Below are positions 8,782 to 27,135 of a DNA stretch of 27,773 bases, in pieces. The notes beneath the pieces are model-generated. The model searched no databases and was not told the DNA's origin. It worked only from the letters and a program-made list of their open reading frames with translations. Position numbers and translations under genes: made by a program. Every line of letters begins with the position of its first letter. Position 1 is the first letter of the stretch. Location of the stretch: assembly GCA_038886535.1 (NCBI GenBank), contig JAVZXS010000008.1:1-27773 (forward strand), written 5' to 3'. This DNA comes from Candidatus Micrarchaeia archaeon (GTDB lineage: Archaea > Micrarchaeota > Micrarchaeia > CABMEP01).

Positions 8782-9357
8782 TCATTTTCTCACCTCCTTT
8801 CTTTGATTATTTATTTTCTTAATTATGTCTTCTATTCTTTCTATGCGTGGTTCAATTTTAACCCCGCATAGAACTTTTTCGTCATACTTCCCTCCCTTCT
8901 CTGGGTGGACGAAATGTTTGAATGCATATGATGCGTTGCAGGCCAACACAAACCCCAGAGTGTCATACTCTGGGGTTAAAATTATATTTTTTCTCAAGAT
9001 CCGTTTCTCTATTACAATGTTAAATGAATCATAGTAATAGTAAATCTGTGCAACCATCTTTCCTAACAAGGAAGAATATACTAACTTCTCGCAACTAGAG
9101 TTGAAGAAATGCCCCTCATTGTCGACATCTTTTATTCTTACTACCCACCAGTTAAGTGGGTAATTTGGACCCCAAAGCACTCCCACTCCTTCAGGAATAC
9201 ATGGGTTCAAATCATACTTTCCAGGGCCGGGACAATATGTCCCGATTACCCCTTTAAAGACCCATTCCACCCCTACTTTGGGGGCTTGGGCCTTGAGAAG
9301 AACTATTTCATCTGAAATGTAATGGTCTTGTCTGAGTTGTATTTTTTCATATTTCAT
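8782..9357 (-). CDS. Hypothetical protein preceded by a pseudoknot element
   Basis: 191 aa, SD AAGGAGG, 5' half visibly more GC-rich than the flanks. Confidence 0.75.
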   Translation of the reverse strand: MKYEKIQLRQDHYISDEIVLLKAQAPKVGVEWVFKGVIGTYCPGPGKYDLNPCIPEGVGVLWGPNYPLNWWVVRIKDVDNEGHFFNSSCEKLVYSSLLGKMVAQIYYYYDSFNIVIEKRILRKNIILTPEYDTLGFVLACNASYAFKHFVHPEKGGKYDEKVLCGVKIEPRIERIEDIIKKINNQRKEVRK

Positions 9358-9491: not shown

Positions 9492-9520
9492 ATTATACCC
9501 TATTTTTGCCAATCTGTCAA
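9492..9520 (-). promoter_or_regulatory. Perfect-consensus sigma70 promoter
   Basis: TTGACA (9520-9515), 17 nt, TATAAT (9497-9492). Confidence 0.85.
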
Positions 9521-9628
9521 GAGATGATAAATAGCATATAATATCATCATAAAAATCACTTAATATAAAAATAAAAAACAAAAGGGACGAAATAATTGGA
9601 AATACGGGCGAAGTAAAAAACAAGTGGA

Positions 9629-10964: not shown

Positions 10965-11886
10965 TTGGCATCTCCTTCTTTATTTCATAACTTACTTTTT
11001 CTTGAGAAAAAACAACTTTACATTCTGGGTATTTCTGTTTGATTTTGTTTTGATATTTTGTAGTAGTGATTATTGCTTTAATTGTTTTTTCTGCATTGTC
11101 AAACTCTATCTTGTCTATATTGCAATCTGGTATGCTTCTTGTAAAACTCATAATTTCTTGCACAAAATCAAAAAAAGATTGTGAAAAGTCAATTTCTTTT
11201 ATTCTGTCAAGATATCTATTTGAGATTATCTTTTGTCTTTTCAGCCCAAGTTGTAAGTATTCGCTCTGCACTTTTGAGTATTCTTTATCTATGTTCTGTT
11301 TCTCAAAAAATGAGACAACTAAAAAATATAAACCAAGAATAATTAACGCAAGGTTAATAGATAAGACAATTTTTCTTTGTTGAATATTTTTGATTTTTTC
11401 TCTATATTGCAAAATTTCAGGCAGTAAAAACTCTACTTTTGTATCCCAGTGAATTTTTGCGTCTTGTATCTCTTTTATATTTTCTACTCCAAGGGTATTT
11501 TTCATAATCTGTAGAACCATCTCTTTTTGTTTCTCAAAATCCACGCTTTTTACTCTTGCTGGTTGTGTAATTCTTGTAGGGCTATATCCTGAAAAAATGA
11601 CTTCATCTCCTTCGCTATCAAACAAGACAAAAAATTTCTCACTAATAGAATGTAATACGCAACTTTGGTATGGAACTATTTTGTATCTTTCGTAATTTTC
11701 TATTTCTTTTATTTCCCGTAAGATATCTGCTGGTAATTCATATAGTATTATTCCTGTGTCTGTCTTTTCGTATGCGTAAATGCTTCCTTGAGTTCTTGCT
11801 ATCGTTTCAATCGCTTTTTCATCTGAAATAAACTTACATAATGCAAAGACGCAAATATTCTGCCCTCTGATAACATACCTTTTCAT
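10930..11886 (-). CDS. Bitopic membrane protein, possible type IV pilus/T2SS alignment component
   Basis: Cytoplasmic N-domain, one TM (IVLSINLALIILGLYFLVVSFF), coiled coil, small periplasmic domain; follows the secretin. Confidence 0.5.
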   Translation of the reverse strand: MKRYVIRGQNICVFALCKFISDEKAIETIARTQGSIYAYEKTDTGIILYELPADILREIKEIENYERYKIVPYQSCVLHSISEKFFVLFDSEGDEVIFSGYSPTRITQPARVKSVDFEKQKEMVLQIMKNTLGVENIKEIQDAKIHWDTKVEFLLPEILQYREKIKNIQQRKIVLSINLALIILGLYFLVVSFFEKQNIDKEYSKVQSEYLQLGLKRQKIISNRYLDRIKEIDFSQSFFDFVQEIMSFTRSIPDCNIDKIEFDNAEKTIKAIITTTKYQNKIKQKYPECKVVFSQEKVSYEIKKEMPNGNIKVASTQD

Positions 11887-13544
11887 TTCACTTCCTCCAC
11901 GCTTAATAATACAACAAGTTCGCTCTTTGTCTTTGCTTTAACTTTTTGAGAGAAGAAATATTTCAAAACAGGGACTTTTCCTAAAAAAGGAGTTCTTTGC
12001 TCCTTCATATTTGTTGTTTCTTTCATCAATCCCCCTAAAATTATCGTATCTCCTTTTTGCACTATTACAGAGGTATTCAATGCTCTCGTGTTAACATCTG
12101 GTGCTTCAATTTTTCCTCCTCCTGCAACAGGTATACTTCTTATTTCTGCAACTTCTTTTAAGGTAGGCATAAGCGAGATATAAATTTTCCCGTCATCGTT
12201 TATTTTAGGAATAAGCCCAAGAGTAAGTCCTTCTGTAATTTGGCTTGTTCCATATCCTGTAAGTAGTCCTAATTGTGTAGTTTCTTGCGTAATATTTGAA
12301 ATATAATTTTTAACAGCACCGACTTGTATACTCGCAGGTTGTGTATTCAAAACAGCAATAGAAGGTTGTGAAATTATTTTAACATTTCCAAACTCTTCAA
12401 GTAATTTCAATATAATCTGTGCCCCTTTTTCTGTTGTTCCAGCGTTTGCACTTCCTGTTGACCTGAATATGTAAGTATTTCCTTGTTCTACAAGAAAAAA
12501 AGATGAACTTAAACTATGTTTTAAATTAGAAGATAACCAGTCCCAGTTAATACCTTGTGAATATTTTTCTGTTAAATCAACTTCTACTATTTTTACTCGT
12601 AGATATACTTGCTTTGCAAATTCTTTATTGATTTCAGTTAATACTTTTTCTGCTTGATTAAGGTTTTCTGCATAGTCAGTTATAGTAATTATTCCTGTGT
12701 TTTTGTTTATTCCGTATTTGCCCTCTTTTGATAAAACCGCTTTTAAACTCTTTTCAATCTCATCATATACTTTCATCTCTTCTATCTTAATCTCTACTTT
12801 CGTGTTAGGACCTGCTTCTGAAGAACTCGTTGTAGTAGCCGTTGTATTTGCACTTTCAGTTATTGATTGTGTCCCTCCAAATCCAGATGTGCTTATAGAA
12901 GAAGAGAAAGAATGAGATATTGAAGGAAGAACAATTTTGAAAAGTTTTGTTCCAAAGGAATAGATATAGATTTTACCATCTTTGTATGAATAGGTTGCTT
13001 TTGCTTGTGTTGTTATATCATCTAAAACATTAGAAAGTTTTGATTTTTCAGCAAAACAAGAAATTTTTACATCTTGCACATCATTTGAAAGAATAAACTT
13101 TAATCCATATTCTATTGCCAGTTGTCCAAGTGCTACTTTAATAGGTAAATCATAAAAGGCAACTGAAACTTCTTTATCTAACTCGTCTGGGATTGTGTCT
13201 ATCACTATTTTTTCTTTTTTAATTTCTTGTTCTTTCTTTGTCTCTTGTAATTTTTCTGTTTCCTCTGTTTGTGGTTTTAATATTGATTGTTTTTCTTCTG
13301 TTATTGTTTGCTTTTGTTCTGCTGTTGATTGCTTCTGTTCTGCTATTACATATTCTGCTGGTTTTATAATTACTAACTGCTTATGTTTTGGGACATAAAA
13401 TCCGTTAACGATACCACTTGGCACTTCTATTTCGCATACAAGAGGTTGATAATAAAGATACTCTGGCAATTCGCTTTTTAAAAAATATGGTTTTTGTGCA
13501 TAAAGCATGCTTATCAAAAAAATAAAAACAACACATTTTCTCAT
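11883..13544 (-). CDS. Secretin (PilN/MshL/GspD-like outer-membrane channel)
   Basis: QVYLRVKIVEV, GINW, ISQPSIAVLNTQPASIQVG, GDTIILGGL, PFLGKVPVLKYFF, KSELVVLL. Confidence 0.92.
   Translation of the reverse strand: MRKCVVFIFLISMLYAQKPYFLKSELPEYLYYQPLVCEIEVPSGIVNGFYVPKHKQLVIIKPAEYVIAEQKQSTAEQKQTITEEKQSILKPQTEETEKLQETKKEQEIKKEKIVIDTIPDELDKEVSVAFYDLPIKVALGQLAIEYGLKFILSNDVQDVKISCFAEKSKLSNVLDDITTQAKATYSYKDGKIYIYSFGTKLFKIVLPSISHSFSSSISTSGFGGTQSITESANTTATTTSSSEAGPNTKVEIKIEEMKVYDEIEKSLKAVLSKEGKYGINKNTGIITITDYAENLNQAEKVLTEINKEFAKQVYLRVKIVEVDLTEKYSQGINWDWLSSNLKHSLSSSFFLVEQGNTYIFRSTGSANAGTTEKGAQIILKLLEEFGNVKIISQPSIAVLNTQPASIQVGAVKNYISNITQETTQLGLLTGYGTSQITEGLTLGLIPKINDDGKIYISLMPTLKEVAEIRSIPVAGGGKIEAPDVNTRALNTSVIVQKGDTIILGGLMKETTNMKEQRTPFLGKVPVLKYFFSQKVKAKTKSELVVLLSVEEVK
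13282..13344 (-). repeat. 3 x 21-bp imperfect coding repeat in the secretin N-terminal linker
   Basis: AEQKQST AEQKQTI TEEKQSI. Confidence 0.6.
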
Positions 13545-20030: not shown

Positions 20031-20205
20031 GTTTTTTCTTCCTGCTACGCTTAAAATATTCTTGTAAAATCTCTCCTACAACTCTTGAAAGAGATATTTG
20101 TTTTCCTGTTTCAAGTATTTTTTCTCCTTGTTTTTTTACAAGTTCTTTAAATGTCTCTTCGCTTATTACTACTCTTATCTGTCTCATTTTTTGTAGTTTT
20201 ACCAT
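20017..20205 (-). CDS. Ribbon-helix-helix-like transcriptional regulator heading the tra operon
   Basis: RQIRVVIS beta strand, EETFKEL helix, SLSRVVGEIL helix. Confidence 0.65.
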   Translation of the reverse strand: MVKLQKMRQIRVVISEETFKELVKKQGEKILETGKQISLSRVVGEILQEYFKRSRKKKHDEK

Positions 20206-20212
20206 ATATTTT

Positions 20213-20243
20213 ATTATTTGTCAAGTTTTGTAATTTGTCAAGT
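20213..20243 (-). promoter_or_regulatory. tra operon promoter overlapped by a direct repeat ACTTGACAAAT x2
   Basis: TTGACA (20241-20236), 17 nt, AATAAT (20218-20213); second TTGACA at 20224-20219. Confidence 0.55.
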
Positions 20244-21981: not shown

Positions 21982-22812
21982 TTATAATGCTTCCCCAAAT
22001 ACTACCGAGGCAATTCCTTTATATGCCTCAGCAATATCTGGGTCTGTTGCTTTGATTTTATTCAGGAAGCAACTTTTAATTGCCTCCTGTTTTCCTATCA
22101 CTTTTGAGAGTGCTTCATATTGAAGCAACTCTCTAATGCCAAATTGTATAGGGAGATTTTCCTTTTCTGATAGTTTTATTACTTCCTCATAGAATAAAAC
22201 TGCTTCTTCGTCTTTTATGATCTTTTCAAGTTCTTTTCTTTCCCAGCAGGGCACTTCTACTACCACTACTCGGGAAAGTAAAGCGAAATTCAATGGTTGT
22301 GTTCCGTAGTATACTTTCCCTGTAGGGTTAGAAGCAAGAATAACTTCTGCCTCTACTGGGAAAACTTTTGAAACTTCTGGAAGGAAAAACCTTTTGTTGT
22401 TGAGCAACTCGTGAAGGAAGAACAAATATTCTCCCTCCAGCGAGTTGACTTCATCAAAAATGACTACTGACTTTGTGGTTAGAAAATGCGTCAGTAGCCC
22501 TAAGTTAAATTCTGTTTCAGGACCTGTAGGACCATTGGTAAGTTTCCAATGACCCAACAATTCTCTTAAATTTTTGAAGTCGCAATTTACTATAAGAAGA
22601 GGAAGGTTCTTTTTACAGGCATACCATTCAGCGAAAGCGGTCTTGCCTGTTCCGCTATCACCGATAAGGTATGGCGTAAATCCCTCCTGTAATATCTTTT
22701 CTACGATGTTATAAAAGGTCCTTTCTATGTAATTTACAGAAGGGATATACTCTGTTAAATCATATCTTCTTGGATATTCTTTTTCTATTTTTTCTATTTT
22801 TATCATCTTCAT
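21982..22812 (-). CDS. MoxR/CbbQ/CobS-like AAA+ ATPase
   Basis: GDSGTGKT, VIFDEVN, ILASNP, YYGTQPLNFALLSR, GIREL; adjacent vWA partner. Confidence 0.9.
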   Translation of the reverse strand: MKMIKIEKIEKEYPRRYDLTEYIPSVNYIERTFYNIVEKILQEGFTPYLIGDSGTGKTAFAEWYACKKNLPLLIVNCDFKNLRELLGHWKLTNGPTGPETEFNLGLLTHFLTTKSVVIFDEVNSLEGEYLFFLHELLNNKRFFLPEVSKVFPVEAEVILASNPTGKVYYGTQPLNFALLSRVVVVEVPCWERKELEKIIKDEEAVLFYEEVIKLSEKENLPIQFGIRELLQYEALSKVIGKQEAIKSCFLNKIKATDPDIAEAYKGIASVVFGEAL

Positions 22813-22826
22813 TTTCTCCTCCTTTG

Positions 22827-22878
22827 GTGAGCCACAAAAGAAACAGGGGAAGGTGGCTCACGTTCCCTTCCCCTGTTT
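22827..22878 (-). promoter_or_regulatory. SD-proximal pseudoknot element, copy 3
   Basis: AAACAGGGGAAGG-GAAC-GTGAGCCA-CCTTCCCCTGTTT-CTTTTG-TGGCTCAC-CAAAGGAGG. Confidence 0.85.
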
Positions 22879-22888
22879 GTTCTTTTTT

Positions 22889-23365
22889 TTATCTTAATTT
22901 AAAAATAATGTTCTGTCTGGTTCTTAAACCTCCGATGATAGCATTTCCTGTATGATGAAATCCGTAAAGTTTCCCGTCATCAGATTTCTTGGCTCTTTCT
23001 ATTAGGTCTTCCAGTGTCACCATCCAAGAGTAATTTTCCTTTAATGTATCTATTGTCTCAATCACTACAATTTCTGCTTCTACAAGGTAATGACCTCTGG
23101 TTTCATCATCCATGTGGGGTTCTCCAACAATTAAAACTACATCTCCTATTTTAGGAGTGTAGTTTTCCCCAAGGGGGCGGAAGAAATTAAACCATTCATC
23201 GTCTTCATAATTCTCTTTGAGAATTTTAGGTAAATCTATGCCCATTTCTTCTGCCTTCTCTCTTATTTTCACAAATATTTCCCCATATTTCTGCACGCTG
23301 CTCAAAAGGTTTTGAGCATAATTAAATAACTCTGGAAAATCTTTTATTGTTATTCTTTTTTTCAT
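22889..23365 (-). CDS. Hypothetical protein
   Basis: 158 aa, SD AAGGAGG. Confidence 0.78.
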   Translation of the reverse strand: MKKRITIKDFPELFNYAQNLLSSVQKYGEIFVKIREKAEEMGIDLPKILKENYEDDEWFNFFRPLGENYTPKIGDVVLIVGEPHMDDETRGHYLVEAEIVVIETIDTLKENYSWMVTLEDLIERAKKSDDGKLYGFHHTGNAIIGGLRTRQNIIFKLR

Positions 23366-23379
23366 CTTTGCCTCCTTTT

Positions 23380-23427
23380 GTGAGCCAAAAATAGAGGGGA
23401 GAGTGGCTCACATTTACTCTCCCCTCT
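23380..23427 (-). promoter_or_regulatory. SD-proximal pseudoknot element, copy 4
   Basis: AGAGGGGAGAGT-AAAT-GTGAGCC-ACTCTCCCCTCT-ATTTTT-GGCTCAC-AAAAGGAGG. Confidence 0.85.
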
Positions 23428-23440
23428 TTTATTTCTTTTT

Positions 23441-24055
23441 TTATTTTTTGGGAAGCGCCATTAGCTCTTTTATAATTTTACTTGCTTCTTCTTTTGAACT
23501 AACTTCTGGCACTTCCACCCCTTTTTCTTGTGCTAATTTTCTTATTAGCACAAGTTGGGGTTTTGAAGGTTTTAAAGAATTTAAATTAGGAGTTTCCTTG
23601 GGAACTTCTTGGGGTTGAGGACTTTCTTTAGGAACTTCTGGAGAAGGAGAATTCTGTGCTGTTGGTCTTAAAAGTCCCCTATATGCCTTGGAGCCAATAC
23701 CCCAAAGGGATAGACCCTTTCCAAGGGCATCTGTTATGGCTCCTTTTTCAGCGTCTCCCGGATAATTTGTAGAGACGCCGAATTGAGGACCTTTGCAGAC
23801 CAACTCGTCTCCAATCTTGATATATACCTCTACTTGAGCAACGGCAGTTATTCTGCCGTTGTCCCCGGGGGTTGTAGTTAGAGATACTAACTTAAACCCC
23901 CAGTTTTCTTCTCCTAATACCTCATTGACAGCATCAATGAGGTATTGAGGTTTGTATCCCCATAGAGACCCCCAAGGTCTCTTTTCTTCCTGTATGGCTT
24001 CATCGCCATACTTTTCAAGAATTTCATTGATTTTTCTTACTTTTTCTCTTATCAT
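23441..24055 (-). CDS. Rad52/Rad22-family (Sak-like) ssDNA-annealing protein
   Basis: YLIDAVNEVLGEENW, AEKGAITDALGKGLSLWGIG..AY; Pro-rich linker; small C-terminal helical domain (S.PQL..I..L...SKEEASKII). Confidence 0.82.
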   Translation of the reverse strand: MIREKVRKINEILEKYGDEAIQEEKRPWGSLWGYKPQYLIDAVNEVLGEENWGFKLVSLTTTPGDNGRITAVAQVEVYIKIGDELVCKGPQFGVSTNYPGDAEKGAITDALGKGLSLWGIGSKAYRGLLRPTAQNSPSPEVPKESPQPQEVPKETPNLNSLKPSKPQLVLIRKLAQEKGVEVPEVSSKEEASKIIKELMALPKK

Positions 24056-24069
24056 TTTTTTCTCCTTTT

Positions 24070-24118
24070 AGAGGCAAAAAATAAAAAAACCCCCAGTGTG
24101 CCTCCGTTCACTGGGAGT
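24070..24118 (-). promoter_or_regulatory. SD-proximal pseudoknot element, copy 5
   Basis: ACTCCCAGTG-AAC-GGAGGCA-CACTGGGGGT-T-rich-TGCCTCT-AAAAGGAG. Confidence 0.85.
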
Positions 24119-24132
24119 AAGTTCTTGTTTAT

Positions 24133-24903
24133 TTACTCTATTCTTTTACAGGAAACTCCAGCGTATCTATCTGGAATTTCCTGTCTTTCAAACAGAACCT
24201 CCCAATCTGGTTCTTCACAACAGATTGGGAGATATTCACACATACCACAGAAAAAGGACACATTCTTGTAAAATGGTCCTTCTTCCATAAGAACAACCTG
24301 TTCACTCCAGAGCATTATGTCTTCCTGCCTGACAATAATATCAACAACAGGGGAAAAAACAATTTCAGGATTTTTATTTCTTTTGATGTAGATATACCCC
24401 CCTTTTGTTATTCCCGTCAGGTAGGAATACATCTTTAATTGAGGGTCTATTTTTTCTTTTCCCTCAATTAAAGATTTGGTTATTTTCCAATCCAGAACGA
24501 CTTTCTCGCCGTTCTGGATTGCAATAATGTCTGGAGTGCCTTTGAGCAACCCTATTGGTAGTTTTCTTTCGTAGGGTTGCTCAATTTCTATAATTTCCAA
24601 AGAAGCAACTACTTGAGGAATTTGAGATAGGATTTTTAATCCTATCTCTTTCAAACTTTCCCCGTCTTCCCTTTCAGGATAGACGAGGATATCTTTTACC
24701 TTATCCCAGAGGTTGACAAAAAATTCCTCTGGGTTTTTTACTTCCTGTTTTAGCCACTTCTGGATAGTGAGGTGTATATAGTTTCCAAACACCTCACTAC
24801 TTCTTTTTACACGAGGGACTAATCCCTCGTGATATTTTAGCCAGTATCCATATGGACACTGGCTGTGAGTTTTCAACATTGACGGAGTAATATATTCTCT
24901 CAT
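24133..24903 (-). CDS. PD-(D/E)XK nuclease (RecB/AddB/Cas4-like) with probable Fe-S cysteines
   Basis: SMLKTHSQCP, FGNYIH, GTPDII, VLDWK, QLKMY, CGMCEYLPIC. Confidence 0.88.
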   Translation of the reverse strand: MREYITPSMLKTHSQCPYGYWLKYHEGLVPRVKRSSEVFGNYIHLTIQKWLKQEVKNPEEFFVNLWDKVKDILVYPEREDGESLKEIGLKILSQIPQVVASLEIIEIEQPYERKLPIGLLKGTPDIIAIQNGEKVVLDWKITKSLIEGKEKIDPQLKMYSYLTGITKGGYIYIKRNKNPEIVFSPVVDIIVRQEDIMLWSEQVVLMEEGPFYKNVSFFCGMCEYLPICCEEPDWEVLFERQEIPDRYAGVSCKRIE

Positions 24904-24917
24904 TTCTCTCCTCCTTT

Positions 24918-24968
24918 GGAGACAAAAAAATAAAAACCCTCAAAATGTGTCTCCGTTCATTTGAGGGT
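24918..24968 (-). promoter_or_regulatory. SD-proximal pseudoknot element, copy 6
   Basis: ACCCTCAAATG-AAC-GGAGACA-CATTTTGAGGGT-T-rich-TGTCTCC-AAAGGAGG. Confidence 0.85.
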
Positions 24969-24995
24969 GTTGGAAGAAGATTTAAAGAGAAGGTT

Positions 24996-25047
24996 GGAGA
25001 CAATAAGAACTTCACGCCCCCAGTGTGTCTCCGTTCACTGGGGGCGT
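24996..25047 (-). promoter_or_regulatory. Pseudoknot element, copy 7 (tandem, not followed by SD or ORF)
   Basis: ACGCCCCCAGTG-AAC-GGAGACA-CACTGGGGGCGT-GAAGTTCTTAT-TGTCTCC. Confidence 0.85.
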
Positions 25048-25052
25048 TATTT

Positions 25053-25727
25053 TTAATCGCCCACCCGAGGTAATGGGTGGGTTACTTTATATACCCCACC
25101 CTTTAATAGGATGGGTTCGTCCATATGGTCTGGTGAGACCACATGGACAAAATTTTGGGAAATTAAAAGATATTCCTCTTCCGTATCTTTTTTGATACGG
25201 AAGATTTTACAACCACCACCAAAAAATTGGTGGTTGTAGATTCTACGCCTTCCCGGCGTAGAATCAAAATACTTCTGAGCACGACCCCAATAAGGGTCGC
25301 GCTCATCTATGAAACAGGGGAGTATTTTTAAACTCCCCTGTTTTATTTTTTCTCCTGTCCCGAGAATTTTGACTCGGGACAAGAGAGATTCGATTTTTGT
25401 GAGTTCAGATGGGTATATCCTTCCGTCAAGATATACCCATCTTTCTTGATCGACTCTCCACCCCCACTTATATGGGGGTGGAAAATCTCTTTCACGGGTG
25501 ACAATGATGTCACCCGTGAAATAAAACTCCGCTGACGGGCAGTATCCCCTGCCCGTCACGGCCCATTCAGGGAGACACCAATACCAGGCGCCTCCCTTAC
25601 TTTGGTAAGTTCTGCCCCTTATATAGGCAGAAATTACCTTAATTGTTCCCCACGGAAGTGGGGGACAATTTTCATCCCGGGGATACCTCGTATCCCGGTA
25701 TAAGTTGTTATTAATTAAAAATATCAT
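25053..25727 (-). CDS. Hypothetical protein (GC-richer than backbone)
   Basis: Start reassigned to 25727 (MIFLINN) after SD AAGGAGG; 224 aa. Confidence 0.75.
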   Translation of the reverse strand: MIFLINNNLYRDTRYPRDENCPPLPWGTIKVISAYIRGRTYQSKGGAWYWCLPEWAVTGRGYCPSAEFYFTGDIIVTRERDFPPPYKWGWRVDQERWVYLDGRIYPSELTKIESLLSRVKILGTGEKIKQGSLKILPCFIDERDPYWGRAQKYFDSTPGRRRIYNHQFFGGGCKIFRIKKDTEEEYLLISQNFVHVVSPDHMDEPILLKGGVYKVTHPLPRVGD

Positions 25728-25743
25728 CTTCTCTCCTCCTTTT

Positions 25744-25794
25744 GGGATACAACAAAAAAACTCCCCGTGCGGTATCCCGTTCACACGGGGAGTT
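25744..25794 (-). promoter_or_regulatory. SD-proximal pseudoknot element, copy 8
   Basis: AACTCCCCGTGTG-AAC-GGGATAC-CGCACGGGGAGTT-TTTTTGTT-GTATCCC-AAAAGGAGG. Confidence 0.85.
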
Positions 25795-25816
25795 GCTTTT
25801 CCTACACTTTTCCCTA

Positions 25817-25867
25817 TTATCCTAATATGGATAATAGGGTTAAAATGCATTTAATTATTTGCGCCAT
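25817..25867 (-). CDS. 16-aa leader peptide MAQIIKCILTLLSILG
   Basis: Full SD AAGGAGGTGA upstream of ATG; first strongly initiated ORF after the 26014-26042 promoter; stop lies in an 11-bp hairpin (25812-25839). Confidence 0.65.
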   Translation of the reverse strand: MAQIIKCILTLLSILG

Positions 25868-26013
25868 TTTTTTGTCACCTCCTTTCTCTTTTTTTGCCTT
25901 GAGTGAAGAAGACATTAAACTTGTCAAAGAACCTCTGTAGGTTTTTTACGAGGACCTGCCCCTCGCCCGGGTTTTTCCTTGGCCCTAAACCCGGGAAAAC
26001 CATTCTTACTTTC

Positions 26014-26042
26014 TTTATACCCTATATTTTAAAATTTGTCAA
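26014..26042 (-). promoter_or_regulatory. Sigma70 promoter of the establishment-like operon
   Basis: TTGACA (26042-26037), 17 nt, TATAAA (26019-26014). Confidence 0.75.
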
Positions 26043-26053
26043 GTGCTTTTTTG

Positions 26054-26082
26054 TTTACAACTCTTTACTCTTGAGGTATAAT
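26054..26082 (+). promoter_or_regulatory. Divergent sigma70 promoter of the sRNA
   Basis: TTTACA (26054-26059), 17 nt, TATAAT (26077-26082). Confidence 0.75.
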
Positions 26083-26087
26083 AATAA

Positions 26088-26182
26088 TGCCTTGGGTGAA
26101 AACTCTGGCAGAGTTCTGCCAGAGGAAAATGTCACCTCCGAATTAAACCCTGACTTGCCTGCGCCCAAGTCAGGGTTTTTTT
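26088..26182 (+). ncRNA. ~95-nt putative antisense sRNA targeting the leader-peptide RBS
   Basis: Own promoter, internal hairpin 26103-26124, terminator 26145-26182, three boxes complementary to the minus-strand leader. Confidence 0.7.
26145..26182 (+). terminator. Intrinsic terminator (possibly bidirectional)
   Basis: AAACCCTGACTTG-CCTGCGCC-CAAGTCAGGGTTTTTTT; also lies just after the stop of 26191..26994. Confidence 0.85.
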
Positions 26183-26190
26183 ATTATCCT

Positions 26191-26994
26191 TTATCGTGCA
26201 GTTAGAGTTATTTTCCTTATTATTCTTTCTTCTACTTGTTTTTTTCTCTGACTTATCTTTTTTATTATCTTATCAATTGCCTTTCTTCTTCTCTCGGCTG
26301 TTTTTATCTTTTTCCATTTCTTTATTGCTCCTCTTAAATCTTCGTCTAACTCTATTCCTACTCCATCTTTTATTGCTTTTTCTATCTCTCTTATTGACAC
26401 TTTTTCTAACTGCTTCCATTCTCCATTTTTTCTCAACATCCATTTATCTTCTCTAATTTTTACATTCCACCTTTTATTAACCTGTTTTCTTATTTTTGTT
26501 TTTATCTTTTTTATTTCTTCAATTTCACATCCTAATTCTTGTGTATATTTTTCTAATTTTCGTCTCTTAACCCTAACTTTTTTTATTCTTTCCATTATTT
26601 TTCTTAACTCTCTGTAGTTTCTATTCCACCATTTTATTTCTTCTGCCTTTTTAGGGGTTATCCATTTCCCTTTCACTCTCCACCCTTCTATCTTCCAAAA
26701 TGCAACATCGTATTTATTTCCCCAGTTTATACTCCTTCCCAATTCCCTTTTAAAAACTTCATTATTAAACTCTCTTATTTTTCTTTCATTCATATCTACG
26801 CCTAAACATTTATATTTCTTTCCATACCAACTTACCCCTAAAAACTGCATCCAATACCATCTATTTTCTCTTTTTAACATTCTTATTGGTAGTTTTTCTT
26901 TTTTACAATACCAATTTACCCTTTGTGCTATTATATCCATCAGTTCTTTTATTTCTTCTTCTTTTCTATTTAACCAGTTTTCTATTACTTTCAT
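26191..26994 (-). CDS. Highly basic Lys/Arg/Trp-rich hypothetical protein
   Basis: Long ORF; start reassigned to 26994 (MKVIENW) after SD AAGGAG. Confidence 0.7.
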   Translation of the reverse strand: MKVIENWLNRKEEEIKELMDIIAQRVNWYCKKEKLPIRMLKRENRWYWMQFLGVSWYGKKYKCLGVDMNERKIREFNNEVFKRELGRSINWGNKYDVAFWKIEGWRVKGKWITPKKAEEIKWWNRNYRELRKIMERIKKVRVKRRKLEKYTQELGCEIEEIKKIKTKIRKQVNKRWNVKIREDKWMLRKNGEWKQLEKVSIREIEKAIKDGVGIELDEDLRGAIKKWKKIKTAERRRKAIDKIIKKISQRKKQVEERIIRKITLTAR

Positions 26995-27041
26995 CTTTTT
27001 CTCCTTTCCCTTTGCCCACCCACCCGAAGCCAACCAAGTCC

Positions 27042-27135
27042 GCAAGATTGCTATCGCAACCTTGCTTTGTCCCGCTCGGCACTCTGAAACTTCCTCGCAC
27101 CTACCTTTCGTAGGTGCTTCGGAACTTTCAGTGCC
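27042..27135 (-). other. GC-rich double-hairpin element
   Basis: GGCACTGAAAGTTCC-GAA-GCACCTAC-GAAAG-GTAGGTGC-GA-GGAAGTTTCAGAGTGCC and GCAAGGTTGC-GATA-GCAATCTTGC. Confidence 0.6.

Follow-up and report, generated by a model that had tools for sequence, protein, structure and literature searches.

We analysed a window that comprises the whole ~27.8-kb contig JAVZXS010000008.1 (C8) of a 1.14-Mb hot-spring metagenome-assembled genome (MAG), and found there, at the head of a minus-strand operon, a small open reading frame (ORF) whose ribosome-binding region is matched at three separate boxes by a predicted small RNA (sRNA), encoded divergently on the opposite strand. The three-box match is real and far beyond chance, and pairing between the sRNA and the leader of the operon is strongly supported by natural compensatory variation in homologous modules. 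What is seen in silico, namely the parts, how they are conserved and the way in which the boxes co-vary, on balance inclines us to the view that a trans-acting antisense RNA would repress the small first cistron and in this way gate an establishment-type operon of a conjugative element. An initial annotation of this DNA had put forward such a switch, and the positions that it gave for the three boxes, both promoters, the sRNA terminator and the 16-codon ORF all proved right upon repeat search, scans and sequence reading (Table 1).

In the window, boxes A and B emerged from the repeat search as pairs of 13 nt (92% identity, one difference) and 10 nt (100% identity), respectively, and box C is repeated likewise, with one copy of each box in the sRNA gene and the other in the leader. 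We scored the pairing of the sRNA with positions -70 to +40 of the small ORF as ungapped helices with G-U pairs allowed, and discarded duplex folding because it yielded meaningless long looped duplexes. The three best sRNA:leader helices were exactly boxes A, B and C, and their sum of -45.9 kcal/mol was attained by 0/1000 dinucleotide-preserving shuffles of the sRNA (mean sum -22.4, standard deviation 3.7). These helices comprise 12 bp at box A (leader 25907-25896, -18.4 kcal/mol), 10 bp at box B (-17.5 kcal/mol) and 6 bp at box C (GGCGCA in the leader, -10.0 kcal/mol), and together they span -40 to +7 relative to the AUG. As the initial annotation had anticipated, the single difference in box A gives a G-U pair, the only one of that helix, and its picture of three separate helices, in the same 5'-to-3' order in both RNAs, is upheld by these best helices and by the co-variation described below. 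Boxes A and B were also the two best non-self helices of the sRNA across the whole minus strand of the window, and no second target with at least two boxes was found in the window. Box C by itself was not unusual.

An alignment of relatives of the operon's nuclease (60-73% identity) retrieved nine metagenome loci (L010-L017 below are labels of such loci), four of which keep enough upstream DNA, namely L017, L012, L010 (cut within the sRNA gene) and L011 (leader only); L013 and L014 are identical to L017 over 570 nt. All four carry the module of a divergent sRNA, a small ORF and a PD-(D/E)XK/Rad52-like/AAA operon. The shared layout consists of an upstream gene that ends at a hairpin plus A/T-run, the sRNA gene on the opposite strand, back-to-back promoters, a structured 5' untranslated region (UTR), a strong Shine-Dalgarno sequence (SD), an ORF of 15-22 codons, a hairpin and the next gene. 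L017 also preserves the wider synteny, its genes following one another as TraU, RepA-like, the 285-aa gene, the module, nuclease, Rad52-like, AAA_5, lytic transglycosylase, pilin, TraL and TraE. Box A lies at the 5' terminus predicted for the sRNA. In the window it reads GCCUUGGGUGAA, in L017 and L012 GUCUAUUAGUU(GGU), and in L010 GGUUGUAGUUGG, and each variant is complemented in its own leader, 18-40 nt before the AUG. Box B covers the SD in all, with flanks that change in step (GGAGGUGACA vs GAGGUGAUUG), while box C, always located in the loop of the sRNA terminator and the opening codons of the ORF, takes the form of GGCGCA (window), GUAUGGAG (L017) or GUACGGAG (L012), the U-to-C change being found on both partners. 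The summed helix energies of L017 (-44.2 kcal/mol) and L012 (-39.4 kcal/mol) were again attained by 0/1000 shuffles each, whereas non-cognate combinations of the window with L017 or L012 reached only -23 to -31 kcal/mol. Co-conservation of the boxes, which the initial annotation had proposed as a check, was thus found in the form of boxes that differ in L017 (and its equals L013 and L014), L012 and L010 yet stay complementary, and of mirrored variants between strains.

The latter came from DNA contigs of four runs of one hot-spring study (X1-X4). A minor variant in run X1, on two short contigs with depths of 3.0 and 5.3, carries 26094 G>A in the sRNA together with 25901 G>A in the leader, that is, at the same box A position, and its 26162 and 26164 C>G changes in the sRNA loop have their counterpart in 25862 and 25864 C>G on the leader side. 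Although errors can occur in single contigs of low depth, these changes are unlikely to be errors because they are mirrored on two independent contigs, which we infer to belong to one strain; run X1 may be the source sample of the window. Runs X2 and X3 contain a variant with a third form of box A, seen in the sRNA as well as in the leader-side loose-end consensus, and the X4 leader differs from its own sRNA in one U-G pair. All mismatches within boxes (box A of the window, of L017 and of X4, and box B of L012) are G-U compatible, a count that is suggestive only, since the helices had been delimited with G-U pairs allowed.

We consider it very improbable that a protein binds the repeated boxes as DNA operators, or that they are left over from a duplication, rather than being sites of RNA pairing. 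They are direct repeats on the DNA, and co-variation of repeats would also be expected of paired operators; however, there are three distinct boxes, each present exactly twice, and in every homologue they lie at the 5' end of the transcript, the anti-SD and the terminator loop, a constancy of position that would make sense for RNA only. Moreover, the order of the boxes is inverted between the two DNA sites, which a simple duplication would not yield, the differences between partners are G-U compatible (with the bias just mentioned), and no regulator gene was evident beside the module in a Pfam scan.

The sRNA would be transcribed from a strong promoter which scored 11/12, scores being matches out of 12 to a sigma-70-type (bacterial) consensus. 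The homologous sRNA promoter scored 12/12 in L012 and was recognized by eye in L017 (TTGACA-17-TATAAC). The operon promoter of the window was missed by the scan, whose rule requires T at position 6 of the -10 hexamer, and the homologous operon promoters matched 12/12 in both L017 and L012. The predicted sRNA of the window has a minimum free energy (MFE) of -44.2 kcal/mol (z -6.9), and 0/200 shuffles folded equally well; its homologues, L017:5504-5576(-) and L012:3988-4062(-), fold with z values of -4.2 and -4.6. The claim that all boxes lie outside the stems of the sRNA had to be amended: box C is in a loop and the 5' GCCUU of box A is free, but in both the MFE and the centroid folds the 3' half of box A (26094-26099) forms a helix with the core of box B (26132-26137). 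The sRNA matches no catalogued RNA family, as Rfam gave 0 matches for the whole window at the gathering score, and only sub-threshold chance matches (best E 0.18) for 22700-26300 at E up to 5.

On the other side of the pairing, the 5' UTR of the operon mRNA is structured and conserved. In its first hairpin, 3 of 8 pairs are changed on both sides yet still paired in the alignment, and a motif at 25921-25965 (minus strand), composed of a hairpin, UAAAAAA, a spacer of 5-25 nt and GGUUCUUUGA(A/C)AA, is present in 5/5 homologues. A second promoter at TCTTTGA(C/A)AA (25930-25921) was considered and rejected; the motif is probably not a promoter, because no conserved -10 hexamer follows it in the five homologues. 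In the predicted fold of the window leader, the SD lies within a local hairpin together with part of box A'. A TTGACA...(A)TAGGGTATAA-type sequence, like that of the operon promoter, recurs on the minus strand at promoter-like sites in 20197-20240 and 9493-9525, part of the operon promoter being repeated at 20197-20226 and 9493-9521 and the one at 9520 being a perfect TTGACA-17-TATAAT; these sites may head transfer-gene operons.

The small ORF has homologues of 15-22 codons in L017, L012, L010 and L011. Between L017 and L012 there are 13 nucleotide differences, and 15 of 19 codons keep their residue (pN/pS 0.17), a result equalled by 18 of 20000 random placements; identity is 78% in the small ORF and 82% in the flanking non-coding DNA. 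Judging from this substitution pattern, the small ORF is a real gene and its peptide is under purifying selection. The hydrophobic character attributed to the peptide by the initial annotation held in 5/5 homologues (15-22 aa, grand average of hydropathy (GRAVY) 0.88-1.88, and 1.8-2.6 for the last 10 residues), all of which begin with basic or polar residues and become hydrophobic in the tail, with 4/5 ending in Gly-stop. Pfam at E up to 10 matched 0/3 peptides of at least 20 aa, the two shorter ones being below the length limit. A hairpin over the small-ORF stop codon was rejected as a conserved element, as it was found in the window and L011 only.

These features lend weight to the alternative already mentioned in the initial annotation, a type I toxin-antitoxin (TA) for addiction or stress in which the peptide would be a membrane toxin and the divergent sRNA its antitoxin, the position before the operon being incidental or secondarily useful; we think it somewhat unlikely, but judge it a serious rival. 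A small hydrophobic peptide under purifying selection fits it, and so do the in silico pairing of the sRNA with the peptide mRNA (three-box sum attained by 0/1000 shuffles in 3/3 complete homologues), the intrinsic terminator after the small ORF in the window and L011 and the partial sequestration of the SD in cis in the window. On the other hand, L017 and L012 have neither a terminator U-run nor a promoter between the small ORF and the nuclease gene, the junction past the small ORF is the generic cistron junction of the operon, none of the three peptides that could be searched matches a Pfam family, and a peptide of 15-16 aa is, to our knowledge, shorter than known type I toxins. In layout, the module resembles tisB/istR-1, zorO/orzO, shoB/ohsC and dinQ/agrB as described in PMC4147584, with a small hydrophobic peptide gene, a pairing sRNA, divergent non-overlapping genes and a long structured 5' UTR. 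It also resembles RNA I/RNA II of pAD1 par, where, according to PMC4147584 and PMC3919570, a conjugative plasmid carries dispersed short direct repeats whose pairing blocks ribosome binding. However, the divergent E. coli antitoxins treated in PMC4147584 leave the translation start uncovered, whereas the sRNA of the window covers both the SD and the start codon; the peptide gene would here be co-transcribed with an operon; and the par RNAs (Fst/RNA II) are convergent with a common terminator, while ours are divergent genes with separate terminators. The toxin-antitoxin and gating readings are not exclusive; in the P1 module, too, the product of the first cistron, Icd, inhibits growth (PMC11897509).

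A third reading of the same ORF, which we hold to be quite improbable, makes it a cis-acting arrest or sensor peptide, whose C-terminus, one of SILG, SLLG, SILV and YIAG in front of the stop codon, would stall the ribosome there and set the folding of the junction, with the sRNA as a second input. It could draw on the C-terminal residues being the best conserved, on 4/5 peptides ending in Gly-stop, on the purifying selection and on the structured junction directly downstream. We recognized no known arrest motif, though, the distance from stop to hairpin ranges from 12 to ~45 nt, and arrest would not need a hydrophobic composition.

The relation of the small ORF to the genes behind it, which our preferred reading of a gated operon requires, depends on the junctions. 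Beyond what the initial annotation had described, the small ORF is followed by a terminator-like hairpin with a putative pseudoknot, and the operon shows this design at each of its cistron boundaries, with two copies behind the 224-aa gene; another copy lies in the 5' UTR of the gene at 9357. Besides junction 1, the minus strand has it at 7 further sites. The design comprises a G+C-rich hairpin past the stop codon, with a 10-18-nt loop that is A-rich on its 5' side (often ...AACG...) and usually a U-run, and then 6-9 nt complementary to the loop, directly before AAAGGAGG and the start codon, in the topology of an H-type pseudoknot. Loop and pre-SD sequences vary between junctions and match within each. 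On the contig, 8/9 hairpin+SD junctions have at least 7 loop:pre-SD pairs, compared with 0/11 in the other 1.109 Mb of the MAG. Since a MAFFT alignment placed many of the junctions out of register, we used partner tests on 23 distinct junctions from the window and loci, chosen regardless of loop:pre-SD pairing: at least 6 Watson-Crick pairs were found in 15/23 cognate vs 36/506 non-cognate combinations, and 0/20000 partner permutations attained the cognate mean. The repeated junction had no Rfam match (whole window at the gathering score; none with E <0.1 in 22700-26300). A terminator with U-run follows the small ORF in the window and L011 and not in L017, L012 or L010, and no conserved promoter separates the small ORF from the next gene; the absence of such a promoter, and of a U-run in L017 and L012, points to probable co-transcription of the small ORF and the next gene, and the common junction design suggests that the small ORF is joined to the first gene as the later cistrons are to each other. 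That first slot is variable, occupied by the 224-aa orphan in the window and by a Csx3 homologue in L010:437-718 (+) (Pfam Cas_csx3, E 1.9e-27), which could be an anti-CRISPR cargo directed at type III signalling. A strong terminator lies after the operon end (20385) and precedes a new promoter-like site.

We propose the following mechanism for the gating of the operon. The strong divergent promoter would produce the ~97-nt sRNA, whose free 5' end (box A) and terminator loop (box C) would make the first contacts with the operon mRNA; the internal helix of the sRNA would then open, allowing box B to cover the SD, and the three short helices would exclude the ribosome. We thus infer that the sRNA would block initiation on the small ORF and, one step further removed, that this block would lower expression of the operon. 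The small ORF would be the first cistron of a chain in which each junction is a terminator-like hairpin plus a loop:pre-SD pseudoknot, so that when it stays untranslated downstream expression would fall, as transcription would end at the first hairpin, translational coupling would be lost, or both. The genes gated would be the variable cargo gene, the PD-(D/E)XK nuclease, the Rad52-like annealing protein and the AAA ATPase with its von Willebrand factor A (vWA) protein. A fresh recipient devoid of the sRNA would express them until the sRNA accumulates, and a resident element would silence an incoming one bearing the same boxes. An exonuclease/annealing pair fits an establishment operon, useful right after transfer and then switched off, and Csx3 in the first cargo slot would fit early anti-defence cargo. 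Only tentatively do we extend this to an RNA-only immunity and timing switch, in which three co-evolving specificity boxes would silence the first cistron, the block would be relayed serially through translation-dependent terminator-hairpin/pre-SD junctions, and the box variants coexisting in one hot spring would be "immunity types", comparable to P1/P7 heteroimmunity, deciding which incoming relatives express their establishment genes in a cell already occupied by one element.

Several observations weigh against this proposal. Coupling is its weakest link, because in the five homologues 12 to ~45 nt separate the small-ORF stop from the junction hairpin downstream and a terminating ribosome need not reach that hairpin; in addition, a weak promoter-like site (9/12) inside the small ORF (25843-25816) could feed the downstream genes independently. 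A selected, hydrophobic peptide favours an activity of its own, for instance as a toxin, since a mere translated spacer would need neither property. Boxes A and B are partly sequestered in the free sRNA, which leaves the 5' GCCUU of box A and box C in its loop as the only exposed stretches. As every homologue was located via the nuclease gene, the impression that the module always heads this operon is biased. Finally, the tetranucleotide distance of the contig to the core contigs is 0.0227, vs 0.004-0.005 among contigs C1-C5, several other small contigs being similar, and the contig may be mis-binned or a foreign element. It carries consensus sigma-70-type promoters, SD sequences, intrinsic terminators and outer-membrane conjugation parts (secretin, TraV), and because of these bacterial signals, the raised distance and the absence of the junction motif elsewhere in the MAG we treat it as a bacterial-type element.

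Table 1. Features of the sRNA/leader module, the operon behind it and its cistron junctions (positions in the window).
Feature	Position	Strand	Basis or remark
284-aa Lys/Arg/Trp-rich gene	26191..27045	-	ORF list; stop abuts sRNA terminator
sRNA promoter TTTACA-17-TATAAT	26054..26082	+	11/12 consensus matches
Predicted sRNA, ~97 nt	26089..26185	+	predicted 5' end 7 nt past -10 hexamer; 3' end, U-run
Box A	26088..26100	+	extreme 5' end of sRNA
Internal sRNA hairpin	26103..26124	+	inverted repeat and fold; missing from L017 and L012 sRNAs (alignment A2)
Box B, anti-SD patch	26130..26139	+	exact repeat
sRNA terminator (13-bp stem, 8-nt loop with box C, then U-run)	26145..26185	+	inverted repeat (26145-26178) and terminator scan
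Box C TGCGCC	26160..26165	+	in terminator loop
Operon promoter TTGACA-17-TATAAA	26014..26042	-	by eye (TTGACA 26042-26037, TATAAA 26019-26014); back to back with sRNA promoter
Operon mRNA 5' UTR	25868..26007	-	alignments A2, A3
5' UTR hairpins	25995-25966, 25965-25949	-	alignments A2, A3
Conserved 5' UTR motif GGTTCTTTGACAA	25933-25921	-	alignments A2, A3
Box A'	25907-25895	-	leader
Box B'/SD	25882-25873	-	leader
Small ORF MAQIIKCILTLLSILG	25817..25867	-	ORF list; 16 codons + stop
Box C' GGCGCA	25865-25860	-	last base of start codon, codon 2, first two bases of codon 3
Junction 1, overall	25728..25799	-	inverted repeat, sequence reading
Junction 1, terminator-like hairpin + U7	25792-25754	-	stem cores 25792-25784 and 25769-25761; U7 25760-25754; between small ORF and next gene
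Junction 1, loop GGGATAC	25778-25772	-	complementary to pre-SD GTATCCC 25750-25744; SD GGAGG 25739-25735
224-aa protein without family	25727-25053 (ATG 25727)	-	Pfam, PHROGs scans
PD-(D/E)XK nuclease	24903-24133	-	Pfam, PHROGs scans
Rad52-like annealing protein	24055-23441	-	Pfam, PHROGs scans
158-aa protein	23365-22889	-	Pfam, PHROGs scans
AAA_5 ATPase	22812-21982	-	Pfam, PHROGs scans
vWA protein	21914-20385	-	Pfam, PHROGs scans
Repeated junctions	~25799-25728, 25047-24904, 24118-24053, 23427-23363, 22878-22810, 21976-21912, 9417-9355	-	also in L010, L011, L012, L015, L016, L017

The module occupies a 463-bp gap between the 284-aa gene and the operon, on a contig where Pfam and PHROGs scans disclosed an F-like conjugation set (TrbC/VirB2 pilin, TraL, TraV, TrbI-like, TraC, secretin and lytic transglycosylase) as well as ParA, a tyrosine recombinase and a RusA-like gene. 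The secretin gene (11883-13544, minus strand; Pfam Secretin E 6.5e-34; PHROG "protein IV of M13") lies inside the F-like type IV secretion gene set, which is an unusual combination for a conjugation locus. The 284-aa protein matched no Pfam or PHROGs family and showed weak similarity (26% identity, E 0.005) to the equally placed 285-aa gene of L017. Read on the minus strand, the hairpin at 26145-26178 has no U-run after it, so that read-through from the 284-aa gene would produce a perfect antisense "sponge" of the sRNA and enter the operon promoter.

Distant-mode blastn of 25000-27100 against the plasmids of PLSDB gave no match, the intergenic DNA was found in 0/8 other genomes of the family of the MAG, and the 224-aa protein in 0/400 other genomes of the phylum; in a collection of 5.8 billion proteins the latter had one relative only (38% identity, on a 1-kb contig), and in the ESM Atlas, whose model for it is poor, no usable match. 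Neither IMG/VR, searched with the nuclease and the 284-aa protein, nor the GTDB genomes, searched with the nuclease alignment A1, gave any match, and a search of the open-access literature with few terms found no sRNA-gated establishment operon.

Antisense RNA control of plasmid and phage genes is classical, but the cases are mostly cis-encoded and stem almost entirely from a small number of cultured hosts. The module described here adds a trans-encoded three-site design, backed by natural compensatory changes, in uncultured elements of hot springs and other metagenomes, and the operon that it heads includes a recombination pair, joined in one relative by a gene of the Csx3 ring-nuclease type. 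If gating holds true, it would join single-strand promoters and protein repressors as a third means by which establishment genes are timed once transfer has occurred, and the boxes would provide a simple sequence rule predicting cross-immunity between related elements. The repeated terminator-loop:pre-SD pseudoknot would represent a compact junction architecture.

Among known systems, c4 of P1 with its icd/ant target and CopA/Tap are the closest models for how the module would work. The immI region of P1 and P7 (c4/icd/ant) likewise belongs to a plasmid-like mobile element, and Citron and Schuster reportedly found in 1990 that a handful of box bases determine the specificity of c4, these bases differing between relatives and the targets being changed to match. 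The c4 RNA of P1 is cotranscribed upstream of its targets and processed from the same transcript, whereas our sRNA lies on the opposite strand under its own divergent promoter. Further differences are the use of three boxes, including a terminator-loop contact, the lack of sequence or Rfam similarity between the two RNAs and the nature of the downstream genes, which encode recombination, AAA and vWA proteins here and an antirepressor in P1. The likeness is that c4, a short antisense RNA that acts on icd/ant, has separate short boxes with which it targets, in trans, the ribosome-binding region of a small leading ORF and thereby controls the genes behind it, as set out in PMC8198154.

In plasmid R1 (IncFII; CopA/tap/repA) and in IncI1/IncB plasmids (Inc RNA, repY/repB), an antisense RNA blocks a short leader peptide and hence the downstream gene, and in IncI1/IncB a pseudoknot between a hairpin loop and the bases adjoining the SD is needed for initiation (PMC8053102); the loop:pre-SD pairing of our junctions has, in silico, the same topology and may support coupled translation as in those IncB/IncI1 rep genes. 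In contrast to those antisense RNAs, which are cis-encoded and fully overlap their target, ours is trans-encoded and pairs through three short boxes, its gene having no overlap with the operon transcript (start near 26007), and instead of a rep gene it would control a six-gene operon with a pseudoknot junction at every cistron boundary. Lastly, the Reg576 system of plasmid p576 de-represses establishment genes in the recipient until an element-encoded repressor builds up (PMC6294495), and anti-defence genes cluster in early-expressed plasmid regions (PMC11541004). The operon of the window and its relatives likewise hold genes that would be useful just after transfer, Csx3 occupying the first cargo slot of L010, but the repressor proposed here is an RNA that would act on translation, unlike a ribbon-helix-helix protein that acts on promoters, and unlike a single-strand promoter.

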